Shown piece by piece: positions 27,589-59,818 of a stretch of DNA of 64,000 bases; positions within the stretch are counted from its first letter, which is position 1, and every line of letters starts with the position of its first letter. A model generated the notes under the pieces. That model was given only the letters and a program-made list of their open reading frames with translations. It was not told the DNA's origin and ran no database searches. Source of the DNA: an uncultured bacterium (GTDB lineage: Bacteria; Krumholzibacteriota; Krumholzibacteriia; LZORAL124-64-63); contig CAVSGO010000003.1 of NCBI GenBank assembly GCA_963727525.1, positions 352,001 through 416,000 of the forward strand. Direction: 5' to 3'. Both the position numbers and the translations under genes were made by a program.

Positions 27589-27624
27589 TTGACACGGATG
27601 GCGATTTATGAAACCGTTTACATA
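27589..27624 (+). promoter_or_regulatory. Promoter -35 and LacI-family operator for the glucan locus
   Basis: TTGACA at 27589; near-palindrome TATGAAACCGTTTACATA (27607-27624) fits TGWAANCGNTTWCA; upstream of a LacI gene. Confidence 0.75.
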
Positions 27625-27725
27625 GCTCGCAAGACTCGGCGGTGAATGGGACATTTGCCGCAGGCCTTCCTCGTGGTTCGGCGCCTCGGGACGCGGCGGC
27701 CGACCGCAGACGAAAGAGCTCCCAA

Positions 27726-28769
27726 GTGACCACCATCCGGGACGTGGCTCGAGCCGCCGGCGTCTCCATCGCGACCGTGTCGCGAGTGTTCAACAACACC
27801 GATCTGGTCAGCGACGCGACAGCGCGCAAGGTGATGCAGGCCGCGGCCGCATTCGACTACTGGCCCAACGAGACGGCCAAGAGCCTGACGACCAGCCGAA
27901 GCCATACCTTCGGCGTCCTCCTCCCCGACCTCTACGGCGAGTTCTATTCCGAGATCATTCGCGGTGTCGACAACCAGGCGCGACGCGCGAGCTACCAGGT
28001 GCTCCTCTCGAGCGCGCACGCCAGCGGAGACGATCTGCTCGCGGCCGCGCGCGCGATGCTCGGGCGTGTGGACGGACTCATCGTGATGGCGCCCGACAAC
28101 GCGGCCTTCGAGACGGTCGAACGGATTCGCCGGCGTCTGCCGGTCGTGTTGCTGAACGCGGTCGACGAGACGAGCGGCTGCCAGGCCATCGCCATCGACA
28201 ACGCTGCGGGAGCGCGCCGCGCCGTGGAGCACCTGCTACGCCTCGGGCATCGCGAGATCGCCATGATCGGCGGTCCGTACGGCAATATCGATGCTGACGA
28301 GCGCGCGCGCGGATTCCGGGAGGCGCTGTCCGACGCGGGGCTCGATCCGGATGCGGCCCGTATCGAATTCGGCGATTTTCGCGAGGCGAGCGGTCATGCG
28401 GCCGGCCACACGTTGCTCACTCGACATCCCTGCCCGACAGCAGTCTTCGCCGCCAACGACTCCATGGCGATCGGTCTGCTCGGTGCGGCCCGCGAACTCG
28501 GCTTCGAGATCCCTGATGATCTGGCGGTCGTCGGCTTCGACGACGTGACGATCGCACGCTACCTGAATCCGCCGCTGACCACCGTGGGCGTCGATGCTTA
28601 CGGGCTGGGCCAGCAGGCGGTGACCATGTTGTTGGCCGCTACCAGCGGCACACAAGCCGGCCCTCCGTCCCGCACGACCATGCCCACCGAACTTCAGGTG
28701 CGCGAATCATGCGGGGCGGCGCGGGGGCGAGTGAGCCGGGTGGCGGCCGAGCGAGGAGGTGTTCGATGA
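27726..28769 (+). CDS. LacI family transcriptional regulator
   Basis: TTIRDVARAAGVSIATVSRVFN, LGHREIAMI, AVFAANDSMAIG, VVGFDD, PPLTTV. Confidence 0.97.
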   Translation: MTTIRDVARAAGVSIATVSRVFNNTDLVSDATARKVMQAAAAFDYWPNETAKSLTTSRSHTFGVLLPDLYGEFYSEIIRGVDNQARRASYQVLLSSAHASGDDLLAAARAMLGRVDGLIVMAPDNAAFETVERIRRRLPVVLLNAVDETSGCQAIAIDNAAGARRAVEHLLRLGHREIAMIGGPYGNIDADERARGFREALSDAGLDPDAARIEFGDFREASGHAAGHTLLTRHPCPTAVFAANDSMAIGLLGAARELGFEIPDDLAVVGFDDVTIARYLNPPLTTVGVDAYGLGQQAVTMLLAATSGTQAGPPSRTTMPTELQVRESCGAARGRVSRVAAERGGVR

Positions 28770-30640
28770 AGATTGCGACCGGATCTCTCTTGCTGGTGAT
28801 CCTCTTGTCGGCGTTGCCGGCAGCGGCCCAGGCGCCGCGCGAAGACGTCATCTGGGCGCGGACGTCGCCCGATCCCATCACGCTCGACGGTGTGCTCGAC
28901 GAACCAGCGTGGGCCACGGCGGAAACCAAGGTCATCGATTACGGCCAGAATGCGGGCATACCCGGCAGTGGCTGGAAGCTCGAGTCGGGCTGGGAGCCCC
29001 AGGATCCGACGCACGCGACGTTCCGCTTCCTCGTGCACGGCAACGTGCTCTACATGGCGGCCGAGCTCCCGGACGTATCGATCGGCGGCAGCACCGAGTT
29101 CAATCGCTTCGACGGCCTGCTGATGGACATCAAGAACCACGCAGCCGACGGCTTTCCCAAGCCGCCCACCGAGTACCTCTACTCGTGGTGGTATCCCGAG
29201 CTCAGCGATCCCCAGGCCGCCGGCCAGGGGCCCAACTTCCGCGGCCAGTTCTCCACCAACGATTCCACCGTTCCCCGCACGCCCGAGCAGATCGCGGCCT
29301 GGGACGCCGTGACCGTGGTGAATGGCCTCACCAATGACGACAACACCCTCGACACCGGTTACACCGTCGAGATGAGGTTCGATCTCGGCGTGCTCGGCTA
29401 CGACGTCACGCAGGCCAACGGCGACATCGTGGAGTTCAACGTCTCGATCTATGACACCGACTAGTTCTGGCCCGCCACCGTGCTGCTCTTCACCACGAAT
29501 CGCGTGTGGTGGCAGGATCCGTGGGGCAACACCGGCTGGTACGGCGAGGTGCGCATCCACGCGCGGCCCGACGTGACCACCACGTCCGGCGCCGTGCCCG
29601 AGATCGGTCCGGAGGTCGTGATCCCGGCCATCGATGTCACGCCCACGATCGACGGCGTGCTCGACGAGCCCTACTGGAACGACGGGTCCGCATACACCTT
29701 CGACATCCGCTGGGACGACGACGCGCTCCGTGCGACGTACGACGGCGAGGGGCCGTACCGCGCTGGCCAGTTCCAGCCCACGGTGTACGGAGGCGAGGCG
29801 CTGGTGCTCGACCCGGCCGACGCCACGGTGCACGTGTTCCACGCCGGCAAGATGCTCTACTTCGGCTTCGACGTGCGCGATGGCGTGGTGCAGTACCACC
29901 CCAACTACGACCGCTGGGACGGCTTCACGCTATCGCTCGAGGACATCGCGGTGCTCAACACCGACAACAATCTGCTGAGTCGGCGCCTGTCGTTCCAGGT
30001 CGGGCCCGACGGTTCGGCCCTGCCGCAGGACTACCTCGTGACTCTCATGAATGAAGGCATGGCGGACGTGGCGCTGCACCTGATGGCCGGCACCACGGTG
30101 GACACGCTGGGGCAGCAGGTCGACAACGGTTACTCGGCCGAGCTGGCGATCGATCTCACGGCCTTCTCGTATCGACCCGACCTGGGCGACGGTACGCTCT
30201 TCTTCGGCGTGACGTTGCTCGACGGCGACTCGTTCATTCCCTTCAGCGACAGCTACGGCACCCGCACCTGGTGGCAGCGCGAGCGCGAGAACACGTGCTG
30301 CCCGCCGTGGGCGTACATGCAGCCGGGCGTGATCGGCGTACCGGACGATCCCGTCGTCAACGTGACGCGGCCGGTGTTCCACAGCGTCGACAATCCGTCG
30401 CGCGATCCGCTCGTGTCGTTCGCGCTGCCGCGCGCGAATCAGGTGATGCTCGAGGTGTACGACGTGCGCGGCCGTCTGGTGACCCGCCGCCCGCTGGGTG
30501 TGGTTCAGAACGGCGTATTCCCGCTGTTCCTCGACCGGCGTCCCGAGGCCGGCGTGTACCTGTACCGGTTGCAGCTCATCGATCCGCAGACTGGCGCACC
30601 GCGGTCGACCTTGCAGGGCAAGACGCTCCTGCTGAAGTAG
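28766..30640 (+). pseudogene. Secreted protein with two CBM9/DOMON-like domains and a C-terminal CTD, split by an in-frame TAG at 29462-29464
   Basis: ORFs 28709..29464 and 29480..30640 share a frame; repeats ITLDGVLDEPAW / PTIDGVLDEPYW; tail LEVYDVRGRLV...AGVYLYRL. Confidence 0.75.
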
Positions 30641-30659
30641 CCAGAAGGAAGGCGGGACA

Positions 30660-33322
30660 GTGAGGGGTCCGGCACTTGTCGTAACGATCGGCGCGGTCGC
30701 CTGGCTGATATGCCTGGCGATCGCGCCCCCCATGGCCCTGGCCGGCACCACGGGCACGGTGACCGGACGGGTCGTCGACCAGGACGGCAAGCCCGTGGTG
30801 GCCGCCACGATCCTGATCGTGGGTACGCGTCTGGGCGCCTATTCCGACACCGAGGGCCATTTCACGATCCTCAACGTGGCCCCGGGCACCTACGAGGTGA
30901 AGGCCAGCCGCATCGGCTTCAATGCCGATGACGATCGCGGGCGTGATCGTCTCGGCGGACCACGTCCAGCGCCTGGAATTCAAGATGGGCGACACCAACC
31001 CTGACGCCGAGGAAGTGGTGGTGGTCGCCGAGCGGCCGCCTGTGGACATGAAGCGACCAGCTCGCAGACCAAGCTCACCACCGAGGAGATCGAGGACCTG
31101 CCGGTGCAGTACCTCGATGACGTGGTCAACCTGCAGGCCGGCGTCGTGGACGGCCACTTCCGCGGCGGCCGCGAGGGCGAGGTGCAGTACCAGGTGGACG
31201 GCGTCAGCGTGAACAACGCCTTCGACAACTCGTCCACGCTGACGCTCGACCGCTCGCTGCTCCAGGAGGTGCAGGTGATCAGCGGCACCTTCGACGCCGA
31301 GTACGGCCAGGCCATGAGCGGCGTGGTCAATGCCGTGCTCAAGCAGGGCAGCGAGAACTTCGAGGTCGAGGCCGAGGGCTACGGCGGCGGCTTCTTCTTC
31401 CCGGGCGGGCCGACGCGCGCCGCGTGGACGACACGATCCATCTGCTCGGCACCCAGAGCTTGCAGGCCACGCTCAGCGGCCCGCTGCTGGGCAAGTCGAC
31501 GACCTTCCTGCTCAGCGGCCGCTACCATACGCACGACGATTTCGTCTACGGCCAGCGCCGGTGTTCCGGCCGACGGACCGCGGCCGACTTCGAGAACAAC
31601 GTCTACGAGGGCCACGGGCGATGGCGAGAAGGTGCCGCTGGGCTTCACGGAAGACTGGTCGTGGCGGCGCAGATCACGAACACGTCCCTCGCGAACGACA
31701 AGCTCAGCTACCAGATCATCTACAACAAGACCGCCGGCCGGGACACGAACTGGCTCTGGCGGCTGAATCCGGACGGGCTGTCGCAACACCATTCGATCGG
31801 CGTGGTACACGGCCTCGACTGGACCCACACTTTCAGCGCCACCACCTTCCTCGACGTCAGCCTGCGCCAGAACTACTACAGCTACAAGGACCACCTCTGG
31901 GGCGCCTACGGCCCCGCTACGACGAGGCTGGGCCGCCGGAAGGCAGTCAGAACTTCGAGAACGGCGCCATCGTGCCAGGGCGCGCAGTTCAACCAGTACC
32001 TGCAGCAGACCAACGCATTCGTGATCAAGATCTCGGTGGTCAGCCAGATCGACAACCAGAACCAGGGGAAGGCCGGCTTCGAGTTGAACCTCCCGCGCGT
32101 GCAATTCGGTTCGCCGGTGACGCTCTCGTTCGCCACGGTGAATGGTGTGCAGCAGATCGTGCGGCACGGGGTCGAACCGCCTGACTTTCCGGGCGTGCAG
32201 ACGAACAAGCCGGTGATCGGTGCGGCCTTCCTGCAGGACCAGATGCAGCGCGAGAATCTGGAGATCCGCGTCGGCCTGCGCCTCGACTACTTCGACGCAC
32301 GCGCCACGGTCCCCAGCGACCTCGCCAATCCGGCTAACGCCATCCCGGGAGCGCCGGAATCGCATCCGCAGGCGACCACGGTGAAGGCGGCCATCTCGCC
32401 GCGCCTGGGCGTGGCCTACCCGATCGAAGACAAGGCGGCCATCCACTTCGCGTACGGCCATTTCCGCCAGGTGCCGTCGATCGGCACGATGTTCGAGAAC
32501 TCGAACTACGACATCCTGCGCAACCTGCAGGCGGGCAGCGTGGACTACGGCGTGCTGGGTAATCCCGACGTGAAGCCCGAGACCACGGTGCAGTACGAGA
32601 TCGGCTACAAGCAGATCCTCACCGCCGATCTCGGCTTCGACTTCACGATCTTCTACAAGGACATCCGCGACCTGCTCGGTGTGGAGTTCATCGACACCTA
32701 CACCGGAGCGCAGTACGCCCGGCTGACCAACGTCGACTTCGGCAACGTCTTCGGCATCACGCTGGCGATCGACCATCGTCATCTCGGGCCCCTGGCCATC
32801 TCCATGGACTACACGCTCCTGCAGGCCCTCGGCAACTCCAGCGACCCGCACGAGACCGCCACGCGCGCCGCCGCCGGCGAGGATCCGCGGCCGCGACTGG
32901 TGCCCTTCAACTGGGATCAGCGCCACACCGTGAACCTCACGGCCACACTGGCGAACCCCGACGACTATTCCGTGAGCGCAGTGCTGAAGGTGGGCAGCGG
33001 CCAGCCGTACACGCCGCAGATCGAGTCGGGCTTCGGCTACGGGCTGGAGACGAATTCCGGGCGCAAGCCCACGAGCATCCTGCTCGATCTGCGCGCCGAG
33101 AAGACGCTGAAGTTCGCGTCGCACCCGTCGCTCGACACCAGCGTGTTCCTGCGCGTCTTCAACGCGTTCGACAGCCGCTACTTCAACGGTCCCGTGTTCG
33201 CGAGCACCGGGAGCCCCTACTATTCGCGTTTCCCGGAGACCGACCGTTACTCCCTGTCCGATCCCACGTGGTTCTACCCGCCGCGCCGGGTCGAGCTGGG
33301 CGTGCGCCTGGGCTGGAGGTGA
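30660..33322 (+). pseudogene. TonB-dependent receptor with N-terminal carboxypeptidase-regulatory-like domain; multiple frameshifts
   Basis: GTTGTVTGRVVD, plug motifs FRGGREGEVQYQVDG and SGTFDAEYGQAMSGVVN, ISPRLGVAYPI, GNPDVKPETTVQYEIG; spread over frames at 30660/30922/31104/31424. Confidence 0.88.
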
Positions 33323-33331
33323 GCTGAGAAG

Positions 33332-36300
33332 ATGTCACAGCGAGCGAGCGTTCACCGTCTGGGTTCCGTGGCGATCGTGCTGACGATCACGTCCCTGGCG
33401 GCGTTCGTACTGGCCGGCGTCCCCACGCCGGTGCCGCAGGACCAGCGCGGCAACCACCTGTACGAGCGCGCCGGGCAGCACGATGCCAACAACATGCGCA
33501 CGATCTTCTGGAACTACGGCATGGTGGGCGATTACCCGGCCGATCCCATCAACGTGGACCTCAGCGTGTTCCATTCCGTCGAGGTGCCCAAGGGCAGCGG
33601 CATGAATTACAGCGACGGCATCACGCCGTTCGTACTCGCCAAGATCCAGCAGGCCAGCGGCGACTCGTCGTTCATCATGGAGACGGGCTTCCGTGAGCGG
33701 CAGGGCACATCGCCTTTCCGCAATCGCGATATGCGCTTCGAACCGCGGCCGGGGTACTTCCAGGAGCAGGAGGCGCTGAATCCTGGCCGTTCGCCGGCCA
33801 TCAGCAACGATCCCCGCACGTGGCCCGACTTCTGGCCCGACCGTCTCGACGATGTCGACGACCCGGGCTGGAGCGAGTCGTGGAACGGCTACTTCGGCAA
33901 GCAGATCGTCGCCGACCAGGAAAGCTACACGGTCATGGACGACGACTACTACGACGCCTGGAACTTCTATCCCGACAGCCGTGATTCCACCCGGCACGGC
34001 CTCGGTCTGCGCGTCGAGGTGCGCGGCTTCCAGTGGGCCAACCCGCAGGCGCGCAACGTGATCTTCTGGCACTACGACATCACGAACGAGGGCACCACCG
34101 ACTACGACGACAATATCGTCTTCGGTCTTTACATGGATTCGGGCGTGGGCGGCTCCGCCATCTCCTGCGACGACATCGCCGAGAGCGACGACGACAACGC
34201 GTTCTACCAGGATGAGTTCAACGGCCAGCGTATCAACCTGGTCTACACCTGGGATCGCTACGGCCACGGCCGCGATCTCACCAGCTCCTGCGCGCGCACC
34301 GGCTACCTCGGCTACGCCTACATGGAGACGCCGGGCAACTCCACCGACGGCATCGACAACGACGAGGACGGCATCACCGACGAACGGCGCGACAACGGAC
34401 CCGGCACGCGGATCGACGGCGCCGACAACATCCTCGCCTACGCCGCGGCGCACTACGACACGGCGGCCTTCACCTCCCACTTCGGGGAGATCACACTGGC
34501 GCCGGCCGTGCGAGCGGGCGTGTGGTTCACGGGCGACGAGAACATGGACTGGGTGGCCGAGAACCACGACGTGGGCGCCGACGGCGTCGCGGACACTGGC
34601 GACACGGGCGAGGGCGATGGCATCCCCACCGAGGGCGAGCCCAACTTCGACCGCACCGACCTCAAGGAGTCTGACCAGATCGGCCTGACCGGCTTCAAGC
34701 TCAACCGCATCAAGCCGGGCCACGACAATCCCAATCAGGAGACGGACAACGTCCTCTTCTTCACCAATGCGCAGGAGTGGCCGCGCCGGCTGTACGATCA
34801 GTTCACGGCGCCGAACCCGGCCGACCGCTTCGATCCGCCGCTGGCCTCGAACTACAACATCGGCTTCCTCTTCGCGTCGGGTCCGTTCCGCCTGGCGGCC
34901 GGGCAGACCGAGCGGTTCAGCCTCGCCCTGGCCTACGGCGCCGACCTGCAGGAACTGGCCACCAACGTCCAGACGGTGCAGCAGATCTACAACGCCAACT
35001 ACCGCTTCGCCGTGCCCCCCAAGGCGCCGGTGGTGACGGCGGAGTCGGGCGACGGCTTCGTGCGTCTGTCGTGGAACGACCTCTCCGAGCGCGGCAGCGA
35101 CCCCGTGACGGGCGAGGAGGACTTCGAGGGGTATCGCATCTACCGGTCCACCGATCCGGAATTTCGCGACCCCAAGATCATCTCCAACGCCACCGGCACC
35201 GGCCCTCTCGGCAACGGTCAGCCGATCGCGCAGTTCGACCTGATCGACAACGTGAGCGGCTTCTCGGACCAGACGGTGGAGGGCGTCGCCTACTATCTCG
35301 GCGCGGAGTCGGGCATCACCCATACCTGGACCGATCATAGCGTCACCAACGGCCAGCAGTACTACTATGCGGTGACGGCCTACGACAAGGGATCGGAGAG
35401 CTATCGGCTTCTATCCGTCCGAGAACGCCATCGCGCCGTCGCGCACCCCGCGCGGGGGGCTGGTGCTTCCGCCCAACGTGGTGGCGGAGCGCCCGAATCC
35501 GCGCGCGCTCGGCTTCGTACCGGCCACGACCGACGCGATCGACCAGGTCAGCGGCGAGGGCGTGGGCGACGTACAGGTGGAGGTCGTGAACTCGGGCATC
35601 GTGCCGGCCGATCACGTATTCTCGCTCACCTTCACCACACCGCATCCTGATTCGCTGCGGGCAACGGCCTACACGCTCACCGACACCACGACCAGCGAGG
35701 TGCTCTTCGAAACGGGCATGGACCTCGCCGGCGACGGGATCGGTCCCGGTGGGCGCCGGCCTGTTGCCCATCGTCGATACACCGGCCCACGTGGTCATCG
35801 ATTCCACGTACTGGGAGCCGGGCAGCACCACGAATGCCCGGATCGACGTGCACTACCTCTACTCGCTGTCGCCGAATAGTCTGCGTCCGGGCTATCCCGA
35901 CGACATCTCGCTGGTGTTTCACGACGACGTGGTGGACACGTCCGTGGCGCTGGCCTTCATCCCCGCGCGACCGGCGAAGTTCGAATTGATCGACCATGCG
36001 CCCGACGGCGATCGGCGGCTCGACTTCGTCTTCGTCGATGCCGACGGTGACCATACGCTGAATCTGGCGAATGAGCGCATCGACGTGGTGACCTACGTCG
36101 ACAGCGATCCGGGTGTGGTCAAGACCACCTGGCGCTTCCAGCTGGCGACCGACGCACTGCCGACCGAGCCGCTGGGCACGGGCGACGCCTACGCGCTCGC
36201 GGTGAGCCGCCCCTTCGGTGCGCAGGACGTGCTCGTCTTCGCCACGCACGCCGAGTACGTCGATCCGAACGCGCCCGGCGCGCACCTGGATCCGTACGTG

Positions 36301-36594
36301 GTGCCGAACCCGTACGTGGCGTCGGCGAGTTTCGAGCCCGAGCGTTTCGCCGTGTCGGGCCGCGGCGAGCGCCGGATCGAGTTCCGGGGCCTGCCCGGTT
36401 CGTGCACGATCCGCATCTACAACATCCGGGGCGAGCTGGTGCAGACCCTGAAGCACGAGGGCTCGAGCGAGGGCTACGAACCCTGGGATCTGCGCACCAA
36501 GGACAGTCTGGACGTGGCGCCGGGCCTGTACATTTTCCACGTCGACGGCGGACCGCTGGGCAAGAGCATCGGCAAGTTCGCGATCATCAAGTAG
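33332..36594 (+). pseudogene. Large secreted protein (~1085 aa when repaired) with Ca-binding Asp repeats, Fn3-like domain and CTD-like tail; 2 frameshifts
   Basis: Frames join near 35405 and 35748; DGIDNDEDGITDE, FEGYRIYRS, YYYAVTAYD, tail YVVPNPY...IRIYNIRGELV...WDLRT...APGLYIFHV. Confidence 0.75.
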
Positions 36595-36619
36595 GGGCGT
36601 CAGGAACGTGAGGCGCGAC

Positions 36620-37630
36620 ATGAGAGAGAGATTGCTGAGCGCCATGTTGATCTCACTGCTGGTGGTGGGCACGGCCCACGCCCAGAGCAAGGTGGGGTCG
36701 ACTGTCGGTGCCTTCCTGCGCATCGAGCCCAGCGCACGCGCGGCGGCGCTCGGCAATGCCGGCGTGGCCTTGCCTGGCGGCATCGACGCCGTGTATTACA
36801 ACACGGGCGCCATAGGCAGGCTCGACCGTGCCACCGTGACCTACTCGCACAGCTTCTGGTTCGCCGACATCAGCTACGACTACGCGGCGTTCGCGTTGCC
36901 CATCAGCGGCACCAGCAGCATGTTCGCCAGCGTCACGGCGCTCAACTCCGGCGAGATCGACGTGCGCACGGTTGATCAGCCGCTCGGGACGGGTGAACGG
37001 TACACGGTGGGCAACGTGGCCCTGGCGCTCGGCTACGGTCGGCGCATCACCAGCCGCTTCGCCGTCGGGGTGCAGGCCAACGTACGCCACGGAGCGGATC
37101 TGGCACACGTCAAACCACATGGTGGCGTTCAATCTGGGCACCATCTACCAGCTCAACGACGGCGGAGCCATCCTGGGCTTCTGCCTCGCGAACATCGGCG
37201 CGCGCGCGCGGTACGCGGGCGGCGATCTGGCGATCCAGTACGATCCCGAACCCGACATCTACGGCAACAACGGCGCCTTGCCGGCCGAACAGTATACCGA
37301 CCAGTTCCCGTTGCCGGGCGTGTTCCGCCTGGGCCTGAGCGTGCCTTATGAGGTCTCGCCGGAGAGTCGGTTCCTGTTCCTGGCCGAGGCCCTGCATCCG
37401 AACGACAACACCGAGTCGGCGAACGTGGGCGCCGAGTGGCGTGGAATCGCGCGTTCGCGCTGCGACTCGGGTACCAGACCCTGTTCCAGACCGATCGCGA
37501 GCTCGGCCTGACGGCCGGTTTCGGCGTGAACACGAAGATCGGCAACAACGAGTACAAGCTCGCCTACGCGTGGGCGAATCACGCGTACCTGCAGGGCACG
37601 CACCGGTTCACGGTCGTGCTCGTGTTCTGA
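36620..37630 (+). pseudogene. PorV/PorQ-family outer membrane barrel; 2 frameshifts
   Basis: FLRIEPSARAAALGNA...AVYYN, LALGYGRRITSRFAVG, NVGAEW, ALRLGY; shifts near 37082 and 37438. Confidence 0.8.
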
Positions 37631-37658
37631 GGTGCGATCAGCGACGAAGGACGACCTC

Positions 37659-39286
37659 ATGCGCAAGACAGCCGACGATCGCGACGCCCATCCTCCTGCT
37701 CCTGGCCACGACGGTCTGGTTGAGTGGCGGTCCGGGCGCGTCCCGCACCGCGACGGCGGCGAACGCGCGGAGTCTCACCACGGAGGCGCTGCTCGACTCG
37801 CTGCAGCGCACCGCGTTCCTGTACTTCTGGGAGCAGGCGAATCCGGCCAACGGCCTGATCCGCGACCGCAGCCAGACCGGATCGCCCTGCAGCATCGCGG
37901 CGCAGGGCTTCGGCATCAGCGCCATCTGCATCGGCATCGATCACGGCTGGGTCTCGCGCAGCGAGGGGCGCGACCGCATCATGCTCGGCATGCAGACGCT
38001 CTGGGACGGTCCGCAGGGCGACGGCTCGTGCGAGCATCAACGGCTACAAGGGCCTGTTCTACCATTTCCTGGACATCAACACCGGATTCCGCACCTGGGA
38101 TTGCGAGCTGTCGACCATCGACACGGCCCTGCTCATGGCCGGCGTACTCGACGCCCGCGAGTATTTCGCCTCCGACGACCCGGGCGACGTGGCGTTGCGG
38201 GCACTGGCCGACTCGCTCTACCTGCGAGTCGACTGGGACTTCATGCGCAGCGGCGGCGCTGCCATTCGCATGGGCTGGAAGCCGGACACCGGCTTCAGCA
38301 GCTTCGGCTACTGGATCGGCTACAACGAGGCGATGGTCCTCTACGTGCTCGCGCTCGGCTCGCCCACACATCCGGTGCCGGAGACCACCTGGGGCTGGTG
38401 GGTCAGCGGCTATAGCTGGCAGACGCAGTACGGCTACAGCTACGTGATCTTCCCGCCGCTCTTCGGCCACCAGTACTCCCACTGCTGGATCGACTATCGC
38501 ACGATCTGGGATGACTACATGCAGTCGCGCGGGATCACGTACTTCGAGAACTCGCGACGGGCCACCCTCGCCCAGCGCGCCTACTGCATGGTCAATCCGC
38601 ACGGCTGGGCCGACTACGACTCGGTCACCTGGGGTCTCACCGCCTCGGACGATCCGGACGGGTACCTGGCCCACGGCGCGCCGCCTTCCCAGAACGATAA
38701 CGGCACCATCACGCCCACGGCGCCGGCCAGCGCGATCGCCTTCGCGCCGGAGGTCGTGATCCCGACGCTGCACAACCTCTACGACGCGTACGGCCTGGCG
38801 GTGTGGGGGCGTTACGGCTTCAAGGACGCGTTCAACATCCAGCGCTTCTGGTGGGACAACGATTACCTCGGCATCGACGAGGGACCGATCATCATCATGA
38901 TCGAGAACTACCTGAACGGGTCGGTGTGGGCGCGGGATCGCGAGAATTCCTATCTCACCGCGGGGCTGCAGCGCGCGGGCTTCGTCACGGCGACGCCGGT
39001 GCCCGACGGGACACGGCCCGAGAGCGCCCTCGTCGTGTCCCAGAATGCGCCCAATCCGTTTCAGGGCACGACGATTGTCGGTTTCCGGTTGGCCCAGTCG
39101 GGGCCCGTGACGTTGCATCTCTACGACCTGCGCGGTCACCGGGTGCGCACCGTAAGCCGGGAGTTCGCGAACAAGGGGCCGGGGCAGTTCGAGCTGGACG
39201 CGCGCGGCCTGGCCAGCGGCGTCTATTTCTACAGCGTCGAGTCGCACGGCCGCAAGGCCTGGAAACGCTGCACTGTGATACAATAG
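37659..39286 (+). pseudogene. GH144 / glucoamylase-family (endo-beta-1,2-glucanase-like) enzyme with T9SS/FlgD-like CTD; frameshifts near 37668 and 38030
   Basis: LDSLQRTAFLYFWE, ELSTIDTALL, GYNEAM, PLFGHQYSHCW, WGLTAS, YGFKDAFN, YLGIDEGP; tail QNAPNPF...LASGVYFY. Confidence 0.85.
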
Positions 39287-39389
39287 AGGCAGGCCGCAAG
39301 GAGCGGCCCATGTGGGAGGTGATCAAGCGCTCAAGGACGATGAGATTTCGGTACAATCACTTGTTATCACTTCAACAGGAGGCTCATCC

Positions 39390-40187
39390 ATGAGCAAGCT
39401 ACAGTTCATGCTCGTCACCGCGTTCGCGGTGGTTCTCGTCGCTGGCGCGGCCCAGGCGACGACCGTTCCGACCAGCGCAGCCGTGTTCCTGCGCGTGTTC
39501 AACGACTGCCCGTTCTCGACCCTGGTCGACGACAATAGCTATCCGACGTCGATCATGATCAGCGACACCAAGGCCAGCTGCGGCGCCGGTTTCGCCAATC
39601 GCCATTGCTGGCGCTTCTCTCAGGACGGCACGACTGCCCAGGAATTCAACAACTACAACGGTTTCGCCTTCGAGTGCGACATCACCGCCACCGGTACCGG
39701 TGAGGGCGAATGCGGCATTGGCATCTCCCCGTGGTGGTCGCAGCTGGTGGACGGAACGTTCAACCTGCGCACGACCGACGGTGAGGTGGCCTGCTTCGGC
39801 GGCCGTCTGCCCTTCTACTCGTTCACCGGCAGCGACGGTGTGACCTACACCAAGGGCACCACCGTGCACGTGAAGATCGAGTACATGCCCAACGGCCTGA
39901 GCGAGGCCGATCCGGCCACCATCGTCTACACCTACGACGACGGCACGATGTACACGAGCGGCCCGCTGGCCTTCGACATGGGCAACGAGTCCGAGGGCGA
40001 CGTGCACGGGCTGTGGGGCATCCTGTCCCCGGCCACCGCCGGCGGCAACTTCCAGTTCTTGCTCGGCGAGGGCGCGGACGACGCTAACCTGGATGTCATG
40101 TGGGAGAACATGCAGTTCACCGATCTCGGCGACGCCGTGGCCGCGGAAGCCACGACCTGGGGCAGCGTGAAGTCCCTGTTCCAGTAG
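39390..40187 (+). CDS. Secreted protein with C-terminal ATTWGSVKSLFQ motif
   Basis: AGGAGG RBS, signal peptide, beta-rich core, terminal TWGxVKxLF motif. Confidence 0.75.
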   Translation: MSKLQFMLVTAFAVVLVAGAAQATTVPTSAAVFLRVFNDCPFSTLVDDNSYPTSIMISDTKASCGAGFANRHCWRFSQDGTTAQEFNNYNGFAFECDITATGTGEGECGIGISPWWSQLVDGTFNLRTTDGEVACFGGRLPFYSFTGSDGVTYTKGTTVHVKIEYMPNGLSEADPATIVYTYDDGTMYTSGPLAFDMGNESEGDVHGLWGILSPATAGGNFQFLLGEGADDANLDVMWENMQFTDLGDAVAAEATTWGSVKSLFQ

Positions 40188-40209
40188 GCAGCACTCGCGA
40201 CACGTGAAA

Positions 40210-40238
40210 CAGGGGACCCGGGCGGCCCGGGTCCCCTG
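40210..40238 (+). terminator. Stem-loop after the TWG-motif gene
   Basis: CAGGGGACCCGGG-CGG-CCCGGGTCCCCTG, 13-bp stem. Confidence 0.7.
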
Positions 40239-40256
40239 GTCCTACCCGGAGCGCCT

Positions 40257-40285
40257 TTGACAAACACGGCAGTGTGTTCTAGACC
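40257..40285 (+). promoter_or_regulatory. Probable sigma70 promoter for GH94-GH1
   Basis: TTGACA, 17-nt spacer, TAGACC; AACAC/GTGTT inverted repeat in the spacer. Confidence 0.45.
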
Positions 40286-40333
40286 TTGTCACCGTCTCGC
40301 CCGACAGTTCGCAACTCGCCCAGGAGCACCGTG

Positions 40334-43300
40334 ATGCCCCCGTCCCGTCCCGTCGCCGGTTTCGAGGCCTCGGTCGGTGTGCTTGCCAACCGCGCCGGAA
40401 CATACACGGCGCTGGTGACCGCCGGGGGCACCGGATTCAGCACTTGCCGCGGCACGCTCCTGACCAGCGCCTCCCCCGCCGGCGCTGGCCTGGCTCTCTG
40501 GGTGCGCGATCGCGACGACGGCGGATTCTGGCGCGTGGGGGCCGACGCGACCTGCCTTCACTGGGAGCCCGGCGTCGCCACGCTGACTTTCGCGGTGGCG
40601 GGTTTCGAGGCGACCATGGCCGTGGCCGTGGATCCTGACGCCACGCGCGAGTGCCGGCGGCTGACGCTCACCAATCGCAGCGATCGGCCGCGCCGGATCG
40701 ATGTGACGTCCTGCGCCGAGGTCGTTCTGCACGCACCCGCCGCGCATGCCGCGCATCCGGTCTTCTCGAAACTCTTCCTGCAGACGGCATTCGCGGACGA
40801 TGTTCTCGTCGTACGCCGGCGCGCGCGCGATCCCCACGAATCGACACCCTGGTTGGCACACGCGTGCCACGGCCCCGGCGCCCTGTCCATCGAGACCGAT
40901 CGGACCCGCTTCATCGGGCGCGGTTTCACCCGCGAAGCCCCGCGCGCGCTCGTCGAATCGACGCCTCTCTCGGGTACAGTCGGCAACGTGCTCGACCCGG
41001 TCGTGAGCCTGCGCCGCATCCTGACGCTGGCGCCGAGCGAGGCGGCCACGTTCGACTTCGTGCTGAGCTGCGGGACCACGCGGGCGGAGGCGCTGCGCCT
41101 CGCCGGCACCGACCATACCGTCAACATGCTGGCCCGGGCGCGCGATGCCGCCGTAGCGGCCGTTTCGCGGCGCGGCGCGTCCGTCGCCGATGTGGCCACC
41201 GATCAAGCCCTGGCGGCTGCCATGCTGATGGGGCGCCGCGAGCTTCTCGCCGACGCCGACGTGCGGGCGCGAGTCACCGGCGAGCGCGGCGACCTGGCGT
41301 GCCTGGGCCTGGACCCCGCCCGGCCACACGCCGTCCTGCATGCCGACACGCCCCGGGGAGCGGCGCTCGTACCACGGCTGCTCGGCGCCCTCGCCACGTG
41401 GCGCGACCTCGGCCTGCCGATCCAGCTCGCGATCGTGGGCGAAGCCGACGTGGCGACGCCGGGAGTCGTCGTGCTCGCCCCGTCTTCGCTCGGGTCCGGC
41501 GACCGCGATCGACTCGAAGCCTTCGCCGATCTCATCGTGTGCGACGCCCTGCCCGCGGTGTCCCACGCGTCCGAGGCGCCGGTCGCCCGGTCCAGATGTT
41601 CGGAGGGTGTCCGGCCCGCCGGCCCGCGCCTGTTCGACAACGGTTTCGGCGGCTTCAGTTCCGACGGTCGCGAGTACGTCATCACCGTGGCCGCGGGCGA
41701 GGACGGGCGCCTGCGCCTGCCGCCGCAGCCCTGGGTGAACGTCATCGCCAACGACGGTTTCGGCTGCCTCGTGAGCGAGACCGGCGCCGGCACCACCTGG
41801 TGCGGTAACAGCCGGGAGAACCGGTTGACACCGTGGTCCAACGACCCGCTGCTGGATCCGCCCTCGGAGATCTTCATTCTCCACGATCCGCAGACCGATA
41901 CGGCCTTCTCGTGTTTCCCTGCTCCGCGGCCCGGCCCCGGCTCCTACGAGGTGCGCCATGGCTTCGGGTACACGCGCTGCGGCTTCGCAGGCGACGGTCT
42001 ACGCACGACCACGCTCGTCTTCATCCATCGCGAGCATCCGGTGCGCATCACGCGCGTGCGCGTGACCAACGACGGGCCCGAGCCGCGCCGGCTCACGCTG
42101 CGCGCCGCCTACCATCTCGACATGGGGGACGCCCGTTTCATCGTGACCGACACCGATGGCGTCTCCGGCGCGGCAGTCGCGCGCAATCCCCTGGCGGGCG
42201 ATTTCTCCGGCCAGGTCGCATTCGCCGCCGTGGTGGGCGACGAGCACGCGATCGCGATCCGCGAGGACATCCCGGCCGGGGCCGCACGGCTCGCTCATGC
42301 CGTCGACCTCGCCGTGCCACCGGGCGCCACCGCCGACGTCGCCTGCCTCTTCGGACAGGCCGCCGATGTCGCCGCGGTGCGCCGGCTCCTCGAAGATCTC
42401 GACAGTCTCGACGCATGCGACGTGGCGTGGCAGTGCGCGCGCGACTTCTGGCGCGACGGCCTCGGGGGCCTGCGTGTGGCCACACCGTCGCCCGCGCTCG
42501 ACATCATGGTGAACGGCTGGCTTGGCTATCAGACGCTGAGTTGCCGCATCCGCGGGCGCACCGCATTTTACCAGTCGGGCGGCGCCTTCGGCTTCCGCGA
42601 TCAGCTCCAGGATGCCGTGGCGCTGACGGCGCTATGGCCGGAGGTGGCGCGCGCGCAGATCCTGCGCAACGCGGCTCACCAGTTCGTGGAGGGCGACGTG
42701 ATGCACTGGTGGCATCCGCCGCGAAGCCGCGGCATCCGCACGCGTTTCGCCGACGATCTCGTGTGGCTACCCTTCCTGACGATGCAATACGTGCAGGCCA
42801 CCGGTGATGCGGCCTTGTTCGACGAGACCGCGCCGTATCTCACGGCGCGCGCCCTCGAGACGGGGGAGGACGAGGCCTTTCTCACACCCAGCGTGGCCGC
42901 AGAATCCGGCACCGTGTACGATCACTGCTGCCGCGCTCTCGACCGTGCGCTCACGCGCGGAGCCCACGGTCTGCCGCTCTTCGGCTCGGGCGACTGGAAC
43001 GACGGCATGAATCGCGTCGGACGCGAGGGCCGTGGCGAGAGCGTCTGGATGGGATTCTTCCTCGCCGCTGCGATCGACGGCTTCGTTTCCGAGTGCGAGC
43101 GTCGTGGCGACCGCGCGCGGGCGCAACACTACCATGCCTATCGCGAAGACGTGGCGCGCGCACTCGACACGAGCGGCTGGGATGGCGGCTGGTACCTGCG
43201 CGGCTATTACGACGACGGCTCGCCGCTGGGCACCCATCGCGACACGGAGTGCCGTATCGATGCGCTGGTGCAGGCATGGTCGGTACTCTCGGGCGTGGCC

Positions 43301-43996
43301 GCGCCGGAGCGCGCAGCGCAGGTGATGGACGCCGTGGAGGAACATCTGATCAGCGAGCCCGAGCGACTCATCCGCCTGCTCACGCCCCCGTTCGTCGACA
43401 CACCGCACGACCCCGGCTACATCAAGGGTTACGTGGCCGGCGTGCGGGAGAACGGCGGCCAGTACACACACGCCGCGCTCTGGGTGGTGCGCGCCATGGC
43501 GACGTTACGCCGGCGCGATCGGGCCGCGGCGCTGCTCGATCTGCTCAACCCGGTGCTCCATGCAACCACGCCGGCCGACGTCGCGCACTATCAGGTGGAG
43601 CCGTACGTCGTGGCGGCCGATGTCTACGGCGCCGCGCCTCACGTGGGCCGGGGCGGCTGGACGTGGTACACGGGCTCGTCGGGTTGGATGCTGCGGGTCG
43701 CGCTGGAATCGATCCTCGGGCTGCGGGTCGAGGGCGGCGACACGCTTGTGCTCGATCCCTGCGTTCCCGACGCCTGGCCGCAGTTCGCCATCGACTGGCG
43801 CGTTCCTGGCTCGGCGACACGGTATCGCATCCGGGTGACCAATCCCGACGCCTGCAGCGAGGCCGTGGTCGCGATCACGGTGGACGGCTCTCCGATCGAC
43901 CCCGTGACCGGATGTCTGCGCGTGCCGCTGCGGCGCGACGGACAGGCCCACGCGGTTGCCGTGACCCTCGGCGCCGCGGGAAGGAGCACGCCATGA
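40334..43996 (+). CDS. GH94 glycoside phosphorylase resembling the C-terminal domain of cyclic beta-1,2-glucan synthase (NdvB/Cgs)
   Basis: AHPVFSKLF, GNVLDP, PQPWVNVIAN, NSRENRLTPWSND, FYQSGGAFGFRDQLQD, GDWNDG, ENGGQYTHA, GRGGWTWYTGS. Confidence 0.9.
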   Translation: MPPSRPVAGFEASVGVLANRAGTYTALVTAGGTGFSTCRGTLLTSASPAGAGLALWVRDRDDGGFWRVGADATCLHWEPGVATLTFAVAGFEATMAVAVDPDATRECRRLTLTNRSDRPRRIDVTSCAEVVLHAPAAHAAHPVFSKLFLQTAFADDVLVVRRRARDPHESTPWLAHACHGPGALSIETDRTRFIGRGFTREAPRALVESTPLSGTVGNVLDPVVSLRRILTLAPSEAATFDFVLSCGTTRAEALRLAGTDHTVNMLARARDAAVAAVSRRGASVADVATDQALAAAMLMGRRELLADADVRARVTGERGDLACLGLDPARPHAVLHADTPRGAALVPRLLGALATWRDLGLPIQLAIVGEADVATPGVVVLAPSSLGSGDRDRLEAFADLIVCDALPAVSHASEAPVARSRCSEGVRPAGPRLFDNGFGGFSSDGREYVITVAAGEDGRLRLPPQPWVNVIANDGFGCLVSETGAGTTWCGNSRENRLTPWSNDPLLDPPSEIFILHDPQTDTAFSCFPAPRPGPGSYEVRHGFGYTRCGFAGDGLRTTTLVFIHREHPVRITRVRVTNDGPEPRRLTLRAAYHLDMGDARFIVTDTDGVSGAAVARNPLAGDFSGQVAFAAVVGDEHAIAIREDIPAGAARLAHAVDLAVPPGATADVACLFGQAADVAAVRRLLEDLDSLDACDVAWQCARDFWRDGLGGLRVATPSPALDIMVNGWLGYQTLSCRIRGRTAFYQSGGAFGFRDQLQDAVALTALWPEVARAQILRNAAHQFVEGDVMHWWHPPRSRGIRTRFADDLVWLPFLTMQYVQATGDAALFDETAPYLTARALETGEDEAFLTPSVAAESGTVYDHCCRALDRALTRGAHGLPLFGSGDWNDGMNRVGREGRGESVWMGFFLAAAIDGFVSECERRGDRARAQHYHAYREDVARALDTSGWDGGWYLRGYYDDGSPLGTHRDTECRIDALVQAWSVLSGVAAPERAAQVMDAVEEHLISEPERLIRLLTPPFVDTPHDPGYIKGYVAGVRENGGQYTHAALWVVRAMATLRRRDRAAALLDLLNPVLHATTPADVAHYQVEPYVVAADVYGAAPHVGRGGWTWYTGSSGWMLRVALESILGLRVEGGDTLVLDPCVPDAWPQFAIDWRVPGSATRYRIRVTNPDACSEAVVAITVDGSPIDPVTGCLRVPLRRDGQAHAVAVTLGAAGRSTP

Positions 43997-45342
43997 CGCG
44001 CTTCCCCGACGGGTTCCTCTGGGGCGCCGCCACCTCCGCCTACCAGATCGAGGGCTCGCCCCTCGCCGACGGCGCGGGGCCGAGCAACTGGCACGTCTTT
44101 GCCCACACGCAGGGGCGTATCGCCAGCGGCGATACCGGCGACGTGGCCTGCGACCACTACCGCCGCTGGCACGACGACATCGCCCTGATGCGCGAGCTGG
44201 GGCTGAACACATACCGCTTCAGCCTGAGCTGGAGCCGGATCCTTCCTGCCGGCACGGGCTCGGTGAATGCGCGTGGGCTCGATTTCTACGAGCGCCTCGT
44301 CGATGGTCTGCTGGCGGCGGGGCTCGCACCGCTGCCGACGTTGTTCCACTGGGACTTGCCCGCGGCTCTCGATGAGCGGGGCGGCTGGGTCAACCGCGAC
44401 AGCGCCGCCTGGTTCGCCGACTACGCGCATCTCGTGGCCGGGCGGCTTGCCGACCGTGTTCCCCGCTGGGTGACGTTGAACGAGCCGTGGGTGGTCGTCG
44501 ACGGCGGCTACGTGCACGGTGCGCACGCGCCCGGGCACGCCAGCCTCCTTGAAGCGCCCCAGGCCACGCACAACCTGCTGCGGGCGCACGGCGAGGCCGT
44601 GCCGGCCCTGCGCGCCGCCGGGGCGCGCGAGGTGGGCATCGTCGTCAACATCGAACCCAAGGATCCGGCGAGCGGCCGGCCCGACGATCTCGCGGCGACC
44701 CAGCGTGCCGACGCCTACATGAATCGCCAGTACCTCGACCCGCTCTTCTTCGGCCAGTACCCCGAGGAGATGGTCGAGATCTTCGGGCGTTACTGGCCAC
44801 GCCACGATCCGGCCGACTTCGCGGTCATCGGTACTCCCATCGACTTCCTCGGCCTGAACTATTACACGCGTGCCGTCACCCGCTACGATCGCGCCGCGCC
44901 CCCGGTGCACGCTGCCAAGATCAATCCGCCGGGTGCGCCCCTGACGAAGCTGGACTGGGAAGTCCATCCCGAGAGCCTGCGGCGCGCGTTGCACTGGCTG
45001 AAGGACCGCTACGGAGACCGGCCCCTCTACATCACCGAGAACGGTGCCGCGTACGATGATCCCGAACCCGACGCGCAGGGCCGCGTGCGCGATCCACTGC
45101 GCACGGCGTACTACTGCGAACATCTGCGCGCCGTCCACGCCGCCATCGTCGAGGGCGTGGACGTTCGCGGCTACTACGCCTGGTCCCTGCTCGACAATTT
45201 CGAGTGGGCCTGCGGGTACGCCATGCGCCTGGGCCTCGTGCATGTGGATTTCGCGACCCAGGCGCGCACGATCAAGGACAGCGGCCAGTACTATCGTGAC
45301 GTCATCGCCAGCCAGGGCGCGTTGCTCGACGAGGAGCGCTGA
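43993..45342 (+). CDS. GH1 beta-glucosidase
   Basis: FPDGFLWGAATSAYQIEG, TLNEP (acid/base), YITENG (nucleophile), WSLLDNFEW. Confidence 0.96.
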   Translation: MTRFPDGFLWGAATSAYQIEGSPLADGAGPSNWHVFAHTQGRIASGDTGDVACDHYRRWHDDIALMRELGLNTYRFSLSWSRILPAGTGSVNARGLDFYERLVDGLLAAGLAPLPTLFHWDLPAALDERGGWVNRDSAAWFADYAHLVAGRLADRVPRWVTLNEPWVVVDGGYVHGAHAPGHASLLEAPQATHNLLRAHGEAVPALRAAGAREVGIVVNIEPKDPASGRPDDLAATQRADAYMNRQYLDPLFFGQYPEEMVEIFGRYWPRHDPADFAVIGTPIDFLGLNYYTRAVTRYDRAAPPVHAAKINPPGAPLTKLDWEVHPESLRRALHWLKDRYGDRPLYITENGAAYDDPEPDAQGRVRDPLRTAYYCEHLRAVHAAIVEGVDVRGYYAWSLLDNFEWACGYAMRLGLVHVDFATQARTIKDSGQYYRDVIASQGALLDEER

Positions 45343-58089: not shown

Positions 58090-58916
58090 CCCTTCACTCC
58101 TCCCGCCATGATGCCCTTCACGTATGTGCGCTGGAATATCAGGAACACCACCAGCGCCGGCAGCATGGTCACGAGCGAACCGGCCATCATCAGCTCCGTG
58201 TCCTGCACGTGCTCGCCCGAGAGGTTGGCCAGGGCCACGGGCAGGGTGTACAGGCTGCTGTCGGAAAGCACGATAAGGGGCCACATGAAGTCGTTCCACG
58301 CGCTCAGGAAGGTGAACGCGGCCAGCGTCACCAGGATCGGCTTGATGATGGGCAGCGCCACGAGACGGAACACCATGAACTCGCCGGCGCCGTCGATGCG
58401 CGCGGCGTCGAGCAGCTCGTCGGGCAGGCTGAGCGCGTACTGCCGGATCAGGAAGATGCCGAAGATGCTCGCGATGTACGGGATGAGCACGCCGGCGTAC
58501 GTGTTCACGAGATGCAGCTCGCGCAGCAACAGGAACAGGGGCAGCATGGCCACCTGCGCCGGCACCACGAGCATGGCTGCCAGGCTACGGAAGAGGTGCT
58601 CGCGCCCCGCGAACGGCAGCTTGGCGAAGGCGTAGCCGGCCAGCGACGTCACCAGCACCGACAGCACCGTGGCCAGGACCGTGATGATGGCGCTGTTGAG
58701 CACGTTGCGCCACATGTTCAGGTTGGTGAACAGCGCCGCGTAGTTGGCCAGCGTGGGATGCGCGGGCAGCAGCGGCGGCGGTAGCGAGTTGGCTTCGCCT
58801 GGTACCATGAACGACGCCGCGGCCATCCATACGAGCGGCATCAGCGTGGCGAGGGCGCCCACCATCAGCGCGACGTGCAGCAGCACCACGCGAGGTTTCA
58901 TGATTCCCGGCTTCAT
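58086..58916 (-). CDS. Carbohydrate ABC transporter permease
   Basis: LAGYAFAK, ELLDAARIDGA (EAA motif), WNDFMWPL. Confidence 0.95.
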   Translation of the reverse strand: MKPGIMKPRVVLLHVALMVGALATLMPLVWMAAASFMVPGEANSLPPPLLPAHPTLANYAALFTNLNMWRNVLNSAIITVLATVLSVLVTSLAGYAFAKLPFAGREHLFRSLAAMLVVPAQVAMLPLFLLLRELHLVNTYAGVLIPYIASIFGIFLIRQYALSLPDELLDAARIDGAGEFMVFRLVALPIIKPILVTLAAFTFLSAWNDFMWPLIVLSDSSLYTLPVALANLSGEHVQDTELMMAGSLVTMLPALVVFLIFQRTYVKGIMAGGVKG

Positions 58917-59818
58917 GTCTCCCTCCGCGTGAACCGGAGCTGCACGAGCGTGCCGACCAGCGTGATCAGCAACAGCAGCACGGCGATGGTGGAGGCCAGG
59001 CCCATGCGCCACCAGCGGAAGCCCTCCTCGTACATGTAGAGTACCACGCTGCGCGTGGCACCGAGGGGGCCGCCCTGCGTCATCACGTAGGGCTCGGCGA
59101 AGAGCTGGAAGAACCCGATCATCGTGGTCACGCCCACGAAGAGAAAGGTGGGGGCCAGGCCCGGCAGCGTGATGTGCCGGAAACGACGCACGGCACCGGC
59201 ACCGTCGATGGCGGCGGCTTCGTACAGCTCCTCGGGGATCACCGCCAGGCCGGCGATGAAGATGAGCATGTTGTATCCGAAGTTCTTCCACACGGCGAGC
59301 AGGATGATCGCCGGCATCGCCCAGTGTGGATCGCCGAGCCAGTCGATGGGCCCGATGCCCACGTGGGCGAGCACGAAGTTCAACAGGCCGTAACGTGGGT
59401 GGTAGAGATAGCGCCACACCAGAGCCACCGACACGAGGGTGGTGACCACCGGCGCGAAGTATATGGTGCGAAACACGCCGCGTAGCCGCACGCCCTTCTG
59501 GGTGAGCAGCAGCGCGGCGCTCAGTGACACGGAGACCGACAGCGGCCCGCCCACCAGCACGAAGAACAGGGTGTTGCGCACGGCCTGCCAGAAGGTGGCG
59601 TCGTGCAGGATGGCGGCGAAGTTCCGCAGGCCTACGAAGCGCGCCGTCGAGAGATCGGCGATGGCGTACAGGTCGAAGTCGGTGAGGCTGAGCAGCAGGC
59701 CGGCGATCACCGGCAAGACGAAGAACAGGGTGATGAGCACGAGCGCCGGGCTCAGGAAGATCCAAGCGGCGCGGGCCTTGGCGCGCTCCATGCCCGTGCC
59801 GCGGCCGGTGGCGCTCAT
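58913..59818 (-). CDS. Carbohydrate ABC transporter permease
   Basis: FVGLRNF, WKNFGYNM, ELYEAAAIDGA, HITLP, MTQGGP. Confidence 0.95.
   Translation of the reverse strand: MSATGRGTGMERAKARAAWIFLSPALVLITLFFVLPVIAGLLLSLTDFDLYAIADLSTARFVGLRNFAAILHDATFWQAVRNTLFFVLVGGPLSVSVSLSAALLLTQKGVRLRGVFRTIYFAPVVTTLVSVALVWRYLYHPRYGLLNFVLAHVGIGPIDWLGDPHWAMPAIILLAVWKNFGYNMLIFIAGLAVIPEELYEAAAIDGAGAVRRFRHITLPGLAPTFLFVGVTTMIGFFQLFAEPYVMTQGGPLGATRSVVLYMYEEGFRWWRMGLASTIAVLLLLITLVGTLVQLRFTRRET

Follow-up and report, generated by a model that had tools for sequence, protein, structure and literature searches.

Gene content and state of the locus

The window, that is, the whole 64,000-nucleotide stretch analyzed here (C3:352001-416000), belongs to an assembly of 4.66 Mb in 8 contigs (96.7% complete), and its closest homologs carry the label Candidatus Krumholzibacteriia. 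It contains nine genes, all on the + strand, for which a preliminary description had given a fixed order; open reading frame (ORF) coordinates and family scans confirmed that order. Three consecutive genes, encoding a TonB-dependent receptor, a large secreted protein and an outer-membrane barrel of the PorV/PorQ family (the trio), are the main subject here, because they may constitute a glycan-capture unit in which the large protein takes the place of SusD. The Pfam and TIGRFAM scans recognized LacI, the CBM9-like protein, three parts of the TonB receptor, GH144 with a type-A C-terminal tail, GH94 and GH1; neither the large protein nor the protein ending in a TWG motif had a Pfam match. The features of the locus are:

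27589..27594, + strand: putative −35 hexamer (TTGACA) of the lacI/operon promoter, TTGAC being invariant in 10/10 aligned upstream regions
27609..27622, + strand: LacI-type operator-like near-palindrome TGAAACCGTTTACA, with TG-AACCGTTTACA invariant in the same 10/10 regions
27726..28769, + strand: LacI-family repressor (PF00356, PF13377; start codon read from the sequence)
28766..30640, + strand: secreted protein with two CBM9-like domains (PF06452, E 7.5e-6; ortholog 1.5e-8), which reflect an internal duplication, and a weak type-A-like C-terminal tail
30660..33322, + strand: TonB-dependent receptor, not of the SusC family, with CarboxypepD_reg, plug and barrel (PF13620, PF07715, PF00593)
33332..36594, + strand: large secreted protein (~1,086 amino acids) with β-supersandwich, FN3, further β domains and a PorZ/PorU-like C-terminal domain (CTD)
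~36620..37630, + strand: PorV/PorQ-family outer-membrane barrel (NF033709 above cut-off in the intact ortholog)
~37659..39286, + strand: GH144 endo-β-1,2-glucanase homolog with type-A CTD (PF10091, 250.9 bits; start codon uncertain)
39390..40187, + strand: secreted ConA/lectin-like jelly-roll protein with a short TWGxVKxLF tail at its end
40210..40238, + strand: 13-bp GC-rich hairpin, a possible terminator without a U run (z −2.76; 4/200 shuffles fold equally well)
40257..40262, + strand: TTGACA upstream of GH94, a candidate promoter element that corresponds to the region of the divergent GH94 promoter in relatives (CTTTGA invariant in 9/9 aligned regions)
40334..43996, + strand: GH94 phosphorylase of the Cgs/NdvB C-terminal type (PF17167, PF06165 twice), no signal peptide seen
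43993..45342, + strand: GH1 β-glucosidase (TIGR03356, 578.5 bits, cut-off 478.5), no signal peptide seen
58086..62588, − strand, outside the main locus: second GH144 with a lipoprotein-type leader (PF10091, 266.5 bits), sugar ATP-binding cassette (ABC) binding protein and two permeases (PF00528)

Five genes between 29,460 and 38,030 are broken in this copy by at least ten frame changes and one stop. According to the frame track, at least five changes fall in the receptor, two in the large protein (~35400 and ~35750), two in the barrel and one in GH144 (~38030), and the CBM9-like gene contains a premature TAG at 29462-29464. A scan of 40 relative genomes gave a strong match of the large protein in 16, from which 16 loci were retrieved; the operon was present in 15 of them, and every gene located inside the contig is a single ORF there. 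Deviation of the in-frame stretches at invariant columns, window versus orthologs, was 0.010/0.010, 0.000/0.020, 0.028/0.051 (mean raised by one outlier) and 0.015/0.013; this low deviation indicates that selection on the genes has lasted up to the present or ended only very recently. The damage is confined to this stretch, as GH94, GH1 and the 2,270-amino-acid SprA elsewhere in the genome are whole ORFs. Errors in a poorly polished stretch of the assembly are probably the better explanation, compared with recent decay. Modeling was performed on the intact orthologs from loci L023 and L040, which are 100% identical to each other.

The enzymes had been proposed to converge on β-1,2-glucan, and this still applies, as GH144 and the Cgs-type GH94 retain their catalytic residues. 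The best solved match of the GH144 ortholog is XCC2207 (8xul; E 3.6e-119). In the alignment of the ortholog with 8xul, the equivalents of E239, F286 and Y367 of XcSGL, which define clan GH-S (PMC12102758), are kept, and the same motifs are present in the window ORF; GH144 is thus predicted to hydrolyze β-1,2-glucan. GH94 finds its best solved match in Cgs (8rf9/8rf0; E 4e-220; next family 1e-70), and its WNDG aspartate aligns with the catalytic D2528 of Cgs (PMC11842490). GH1, which exceeds its equivalog cut-off, is matched by solved β-glucosidases. To judge from these sequences, β-1,2-glucan is very probably the substrate of the locus. Downstream, the second GH144 is 44% identical to the first, and the sugar ABC binding protein matches Lin1841 (5ysb; E 4e-70), which we take to be the sophoro-oligosaccharide binder of Listeria. 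A binding protein of this kind is mentioned in PMC8861115, without the name Lin1841. The second GH144 and the ABC system probably provide the periplasmic and inner-membrane steps of the pathway. This second β-1,2-glucan cluster (55294-62588, − strand) also encodes a 1,001-amino-acid F5/8-domain protein.

Receptor, large protein and barrel

The synteny of the trio is conserved, as shown by a survey of 46 genome loci (some of these genomes overlap the 40 relatives scanned). Receptor, large protein and barrel follow one another in this order in 45 of them, and the 46th ends inside the large protein at a contig end. The loci span the labels Krumholzibacteriia, Eisenbacteria, Ignavibacteria, Kryptonia, KSB1, Bacteroidota and Acidobacteriota. 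As for the other genes, the CBM9-like protein was found in 40, GH144 in 40, LacI in 36, GH94 in 31 and the TWG protein in 26 loci; GH144 lies directly 3′ of the barrel in close loci, and the trio is also found in loci that lack GH144 and GH94. Among the best 80 of 569 metagenome matches to the large protein, the receptor was directly upstream in 64 of the 69 testable loci, and 59 of 62 had the barrel downstream. The misses comprise two split-gene artefacts, one broken gene, two stand-alone N-domains and locus L162 without both partners.

In the distant class (32-40% identity; 72/138 neighboring ORFs scanned), the trio is accompanied by GH16 with malectin and GH3, by GH9, by GH2 and GH130, by GH13 with amylo-1,6-glucosidase, and also by an MGH1-like hydrolase, GxGYxYP, symporters, major facilitator superfamily transporters and ABC binding proteins. 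Because it recurs beside enzymes for other glycans, the trio can be regarded as a reusable core. The large protein itself is 51-81% identical within substrate classes versus 32-40% between them. When only the tail of the large protein was used as the query, taking the best tail match in 20 of the 25 relatives without a full-score tail ortholog (the five weakest omitted), a receptor was located within 8 kb in 16 of the 20 genomes and a barrel in 14, contig ends cutting two loci. The genome under study contains two further sets of receptor, large-protein paralog and barrel. At L086:6976-18506 (C7:660000-679999), a paralog trio is followed by an unknown gene, ExbB, ExbD, ExbD and TonB.

Variations of the arrangement were also observed. 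In L087:6435-14003, L179-L186 and L189-L192, the order is a paralog of ~700 amino acids, a gap of ~1.4 kb, receptor and barrel; the gap holds one intervening gene in L087 and similar loci. A single contig of genome G005 (C41:27097-36788) carries four tandem paralogs of the FN3 and tail region of the large protein.

The barrel had been called PorV-like, and the intact ortholog indeed passed the cut-off of the PorV/PorQ family profile NF033709 (159.9 vs 90 bits; the window pieces gave 87.6 and 24.1 bits). Its profile matches the solved PorV 6h3i (E 1e-19). It remained below the equivalog cut-offs NF033710 and NF033711 for PorV and PorQ (61.1 vs 250 and 76.1 vs 220 bits, respectively). About nine PorV-family genes are present in the genome, most of them directly 3′ of a large tailed protein, and the second-best PorV-family match comes after PorU at C7:793584, which corresponds to the canonical PorU-PorV pair. 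This pair could handle ordinary tails. The PorU sortase was identified by NF033707 (436.5 vs 420 bits) and the SprA translocon, with neighbors, by TIGR04189 (480 bits, cut-off 200). GldL and GldM gave no match in the genome, and neither did the positive controls.

Of the CTD tags previously assigned to this locus, that of GH144 is above the type-A cut-offs (TIGR04183, 29.7 vs 23 bits; PF18962, 29.8 vs 27), but that of the CBM9-like protein, motif-like by eye, stayed below the TIGR04183 cut-off of 23 (17.1 bits in the window, 14.2 in the ortholog). The tail of the large protein matched neither TIGR04183 nor PF18962 at E up to 1, and CHU_C gave 16.6-16.7 bits (cut-off 27) in 2/30 homologs. Its nearest solved tails are those of PorZ (E 0.014) and PorU (E 0.04), which are uncleaved and retained on the cognate barrels PorQ and PorV (PMC10202324); barrels encoded by adjacent genes serve type-B cargo in the same way (PMC10202324, PMC11285876). 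Mean tail identity in close/distant loci is 77/65% for the large protein, 53/34% for GH144 and 50/26% for the CBM9-like protein, the latter two drifting like ordinary tails. The special tail of the large protein was found in 41/41 genomes. In the genome under study, four of 172 matches to it are full-length at more than 67 bits, the remainder reaching at most 41 bits, and three of these four stand with a receptor and a barrel.

For complex prediction, barrel, GH144 tail and large-protein tail were submitted as three chains, and the large-protein tail was scored. The complex with the barrel scored 0.88, versus 0.00 for the best of three controls, with the GH144 tail present as a competitor; the pass mark is reached by 116/157 solved complexes and 2/215 mismatched pairs. 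In all three runs the large-protein tail occupied the barrel site, with at least 87% of the contacts shared and a partner pLDDT (predicted local distance difference test) of at least 71. The confident interface consists of barrel and large-protein residues only, among them the last strand and residues 1011-1018, which align to motif Lb3b4 of PorZ. The models thus make it likely that the barrel of the locus holds the tail of the large protein, rather than the glucanase or the CBM9-like protein. The preliminary description had instead given the barrel the task of displaying GH144 and the CBM9-like protein, both CTD-tagged, at the cell surface. Despite the fact that these genes share one operon, that GH144 directly follows the barrel in close loci with a valid type-A CTD and that the complex score covers only the tail of the large protein, such a role appears very improbable: the site was taken by the large-protein tail while that of GH144 was available, the trio does not depend on the presence of GH144 and GH94, the canonical PorU-PorV pair is encoded elsewhere, and the tails in question behave like ordinary ones.

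In the structure model of the intact ortholog, the large protein consists of the β-supersandwich, FN3, the further β domains and the PorZ/PorU-like tail, with no helical catalytic barrel. The best matches of the supersandwich are the non-catalytic N-domains of GH15, GH94 and GH116 enzymes (10-13% identity), and many of its conserved acidic residues sit in calcium motifs of the DxDxDG type. N-domain and FN3 are conserved to 80 and 79%, the plug of the receptor to 81%. A search of solved structures with the sequence of a single ortholog returned nothing at E up to 1, the ESM Atlas gave only unnamed clusters for the N-domain, and no fusion of receptor and large protein was detected among proteins of 1,870-5,000 amino acids, which is weak evidence. 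Longer homologs (P0172, P0191, P0194, P0219, P0220 and P0225) contain Reg_prop propeller repeats before the tail.

With this architecture, the large protein might be a surface enzyme, that is, a hydrolase, lyase or epimerase that uses the supersandwich and is anchored by the barrel beside the receptor. This is improbable, since its best matches are non-catalytic and the helical catalytic barrel is missing, since loci for unrelated glycans use this scaffold too, and since many of the conserved acidic residues belong to the calcium motifs. Alternatively, large protein and barrel could be factors that assemble or stabilize this class of receptor, like a chaperone-like canopy, irrespective of any handling of glycan. 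The scaffold is found with receptors regardless of substrate, even in the L086 locus without a carbohydrate-active enzyme (CAZyme), and BamG in the β-barrel assembly machinery (BAM) complex of Flavobacterium sets a precedent: there, a surface protein is held by a FadL-family barrel of 14 strands that is packed against BamA (PMC12611786). Nevertheless, each locus has its own copy, diverging between substrate classes to the extent given above, and the N-domain fold is of the carbohydrate-enzyme type, so that this explanation is hardly probable at all.

That SusD is missing from the locus, as noted before, was confirmed: SusD models matched none of the ORF pieces scanned in the window or in the intact orthologs, and PF07980 was found in 0/40 relatives. 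The large protein was considered as SusD itself and rejected, given that it had no SusD Pfam match at E up to 1, has no lipobox cysteine and is modeled as mostly β. It was also rejected as PorU proper, which is encoded elsewhere in the genome, and as PorZ proper, to which only the tail is similar. The single SusD match of the assembly (C5:772967) was set aside, as the surrounding 60 kb form a terminal block of 33-43% G+C (genome, 67%) that is probably foreign DNA. This block (C5:760000-820261, L095) carries a fragmented SusC/SusD-like pair and probably represents a chimeric join or foreign DNA.

Regulation and the proposed route of glucan uptake

TTGACA at 27589 and the operator-like TG(A/T)AACCGTTTACA at 27609-27622 are kept in 10/10 aligned upstream regions, and the operator-like pattern was found in 9/39 loci examined; LacI would repress the locus. 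The view of the locus as one co-oriented block is accurate for the strand in the window but overstated in general. In 20/20 close loci, the close GH94 ortholog (44-68% identity) is located on the opposite strand, upstream of lacI, and co-orientation of GH94-GH1 with the operon is particular to this assembly; in 11 more distant loci, a different, shorter GH94 is placed after the barrel. The GH94 of the window comes after the 13-bp hairpin, which was not called by the terminator scan, and bears the CTTTGACA element found ahead of GH94 in relatives, while a remnant of the GH94 upstream element remains 5′ of lacI. An inversion of the segment from lacI to the TWG gene, be it real or an assembly event, would explain this placement, and GH94-GH1 is probably a separate transcription unit.

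The site where relatives carry GH94, directly upstream of lacI, is occupied in the window by a HipA-like kinase and its helix-turn-helix partner (25725-27500, − strand), followed by an AT-rich stretch. At the other end of the operon, the tail of the TWG protein (40170-40187) is one of many, as 64 ORFs of the genome end in a tail of the type [TS]W[GS]xVKxL[FY]. In loci L031, L033 and L035, the domain of the TWG protein ends in a CTD-like tail instead, which suggests that the two are interchangeable sorting tags. The ESM Atlas returned mostly unnamed clusters for the TWG protein.

Taken as a whole, the locus is somewhat more probably than otherwise a LacI-repressed system for harvesting β-1,2-glucan, whose core is an undescribed outer-membrane unit of three parts in which the large protein stands in SusD's place. 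GH144 and the CBM9-like protein would be exported like any ordinary CTD cargo through the SprA/PorV/PorU route of the genome, to cut or bind glucan outside the cell. The large protein would be secreted too but retain its special tail, by which, according to model and synteny, it would dock on the barrel encoded directly after it, like PorZ on PorQ and PorU on PorV. Beside or over the receptor, the tethered supersandwich and FN3 might pass sophoro-oligosaccharides to it, a step suggested by gene linkage, and the receptor would import the oligomers. By homology, the second GH144 and the ABC importer, encoded 13-17 kb downstream, would shorten the oligomers and bring them in, and GH94 and GH1 would finish them to glucose-1-phosphate and glucose.

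The individual parts of this proposal differ in strength. That the large protein works directly with the receptor is, at best, slightly favored, contact and glycan binding being deduced from gene linkage. The most far-reaching version is tentative and falls a little short of an even chance: the trio would be one machine, with a barrel-tethered protein derived from a glycosidase N-domain as the lid of the receptor. It would thereby be a second, independently built equivalent of SusC/SusD that joins type IX secretion to TonB uptake. Krumholzibacteria, Eisenbacteria, Ignavibacteria, Kryptonia and KSB1-like lineages would use it as their standard means of capturing nutrients, namely glycans and perhaps also peptides.

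Several observations weigh against this proposal. Concerning the docking, the matches of the tail to PorZ and PorU are weak; PorV-cargo complexes have already been solved, and the complex pass may reflect likeness to them; the job differed from the calibration set in having three chains, and it used custom alignments; and scoring of the large-protein tail alone leaves room for binding of the GH144 tail. Concerning the linkage, the N-domain occurs on its own with an ordinary FlgD/type-A-like tail and neither receptor nor barrel (L037:6717-8972, − strand), L143 and L155 are likewise stand-alone N-domains, 4/20 of the paralogs picked by their tail have neither partner within 8 kb, and L162 lacks both according to profiles built in this analysis. 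The L086 trio adjoins a peptide-type ABC system, with no CAZyme among the ORFs scanned, and no receptor or barrel was called near a 913-amino-acid paralog with the special tail (L088:5736-9646, C6). Two of five distant trio-bearing genomes have one SusD match, so that exclusion is not strict. Moreover, the loci are related rather than independent, and their counts are descriptions, not statistics. As a separate observation, the L088 paralog lies upstream of a cytochrome c assembly gene and adjoins a 375-amino-acid ORF that is repeated in L092 and is possibly mobile.

The stand-alone N-domains, one of them with an ordinary tail, and the paralogs without a receptor would be expected if the large protein were held by the barrel but were a free-standing glycan binder or scaffold, merely co-regulated with the receptor and not capping it. 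Such a protein would resemble the accessory surface glycan-binding proteins more than SusD. The variable gene order, such as the additional gene that separates large protein from receptor in L087-like loci, and, weakly, the lack of a receptor fusion point in the same direction. However, a receptor directly upstream in 64/69 loci across phyla and substrates speaks against mere co-regulation, and the conservation of N-domain and FN3, at the level of the plug, is in our judgement above that expected for an accessory binder. The free-standing binder is therefore rather unlikely, though with some chance of being correct.

If the trio works as a lid-and-receptor unit, it would explain how polysaccharides are captured in Bacteroidota-related lineages in which TonB receptors are present and SusD is rare or absent, and the rule of a retained tail plus cognate barrel, applied to cargo processing and gliding, would cover nutrient uptake as well. 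Searches for glycan loci are keyed on susC-susD pairs; the trio would be a marker for those loci in these phyla that such searches would miss. The large protein belongs to a family that numbers thousands (3,487 representatives when clustered at 50% identity) and has neither a Pfam model nor a solved full-length relative. The substrate can be made enzymatically (PMC11842490).

Relation to known systems

A search of the open literature, which covered neither subscription papers nor bioRxiv supplements, returned no description of the trio, and the accessible parts of PMC11495043 and PMC5317091 contained nothing relevant to it. The closest counterpart in gene content is the GH144 cluster of Ignavibacterium album, which likewise combines two GH144 genes, a Cgs-type GH94, a TonB-dependent transporter and an ABC binding protein, and which has been proposed to use β-1,2-glucan (PMC8861115). 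In the accessible text of that paper the receptor is discussed, no role is given for a large protein or barrel, and genes that are difficult to predict are drawn in grey. Ignavibacteria-labeled loci of the present survey (L062, possibly different from the type-strain cluster) carry the trio followed by GH94-GH144-GH144.

The overall logic of the locus is that of a SusC/SusD polysaccharide utilization locus of Bacteroidota: a regulator, a TonB receptor whose gene is immediately followed by that of a dedicated partner, CAZymes at the surface and in the cytoplasm that act on a single glycan, and a core that is reused for many glycans. In contrast, the receptor is far below the SusC cut-off (TIGR04056, SusC/RagA; 59.3 bits in the ortholog vs 368.25), and the third core gene encodes a PorV-family barrel. 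SusD is a helical lipoprotein, whereas the partner here is mostly β, ~1,086 amino acids long, equipped with a secretion tail and without a lipobox. As two defining features of SusC/SusD are absent, the locus is not counted as a member of that class, although it would work like one. The supersandwich is shared with the N-termini of GH15, GH94 and GH116 enzymes; acidic calcium-type inserts, FN3 and the secretion tail take the place of their helical catalytic barrel.

Pairs of the PorZ-PorQ type, in which a secreted protein keeps its longer tail and sits on a cognate barrel that is often encoded next to it (PMC10202324, PMC11285876), are similar in the tail, in the family of the barrel and in the modeled docking of the large protein. 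Unlike them, the barrel of the trio stays below the PorV and PorQ equivalog cut-offs, its cargo has neither a propeller nor a protease domain, and the pair accompanies a nutrient receptor and CAZymes instead of serving cargo processing or gliding. By analogy, the large protein would be anchored by the logic of PorZ-PorQ, with its tail uncleaved, but put to another use.

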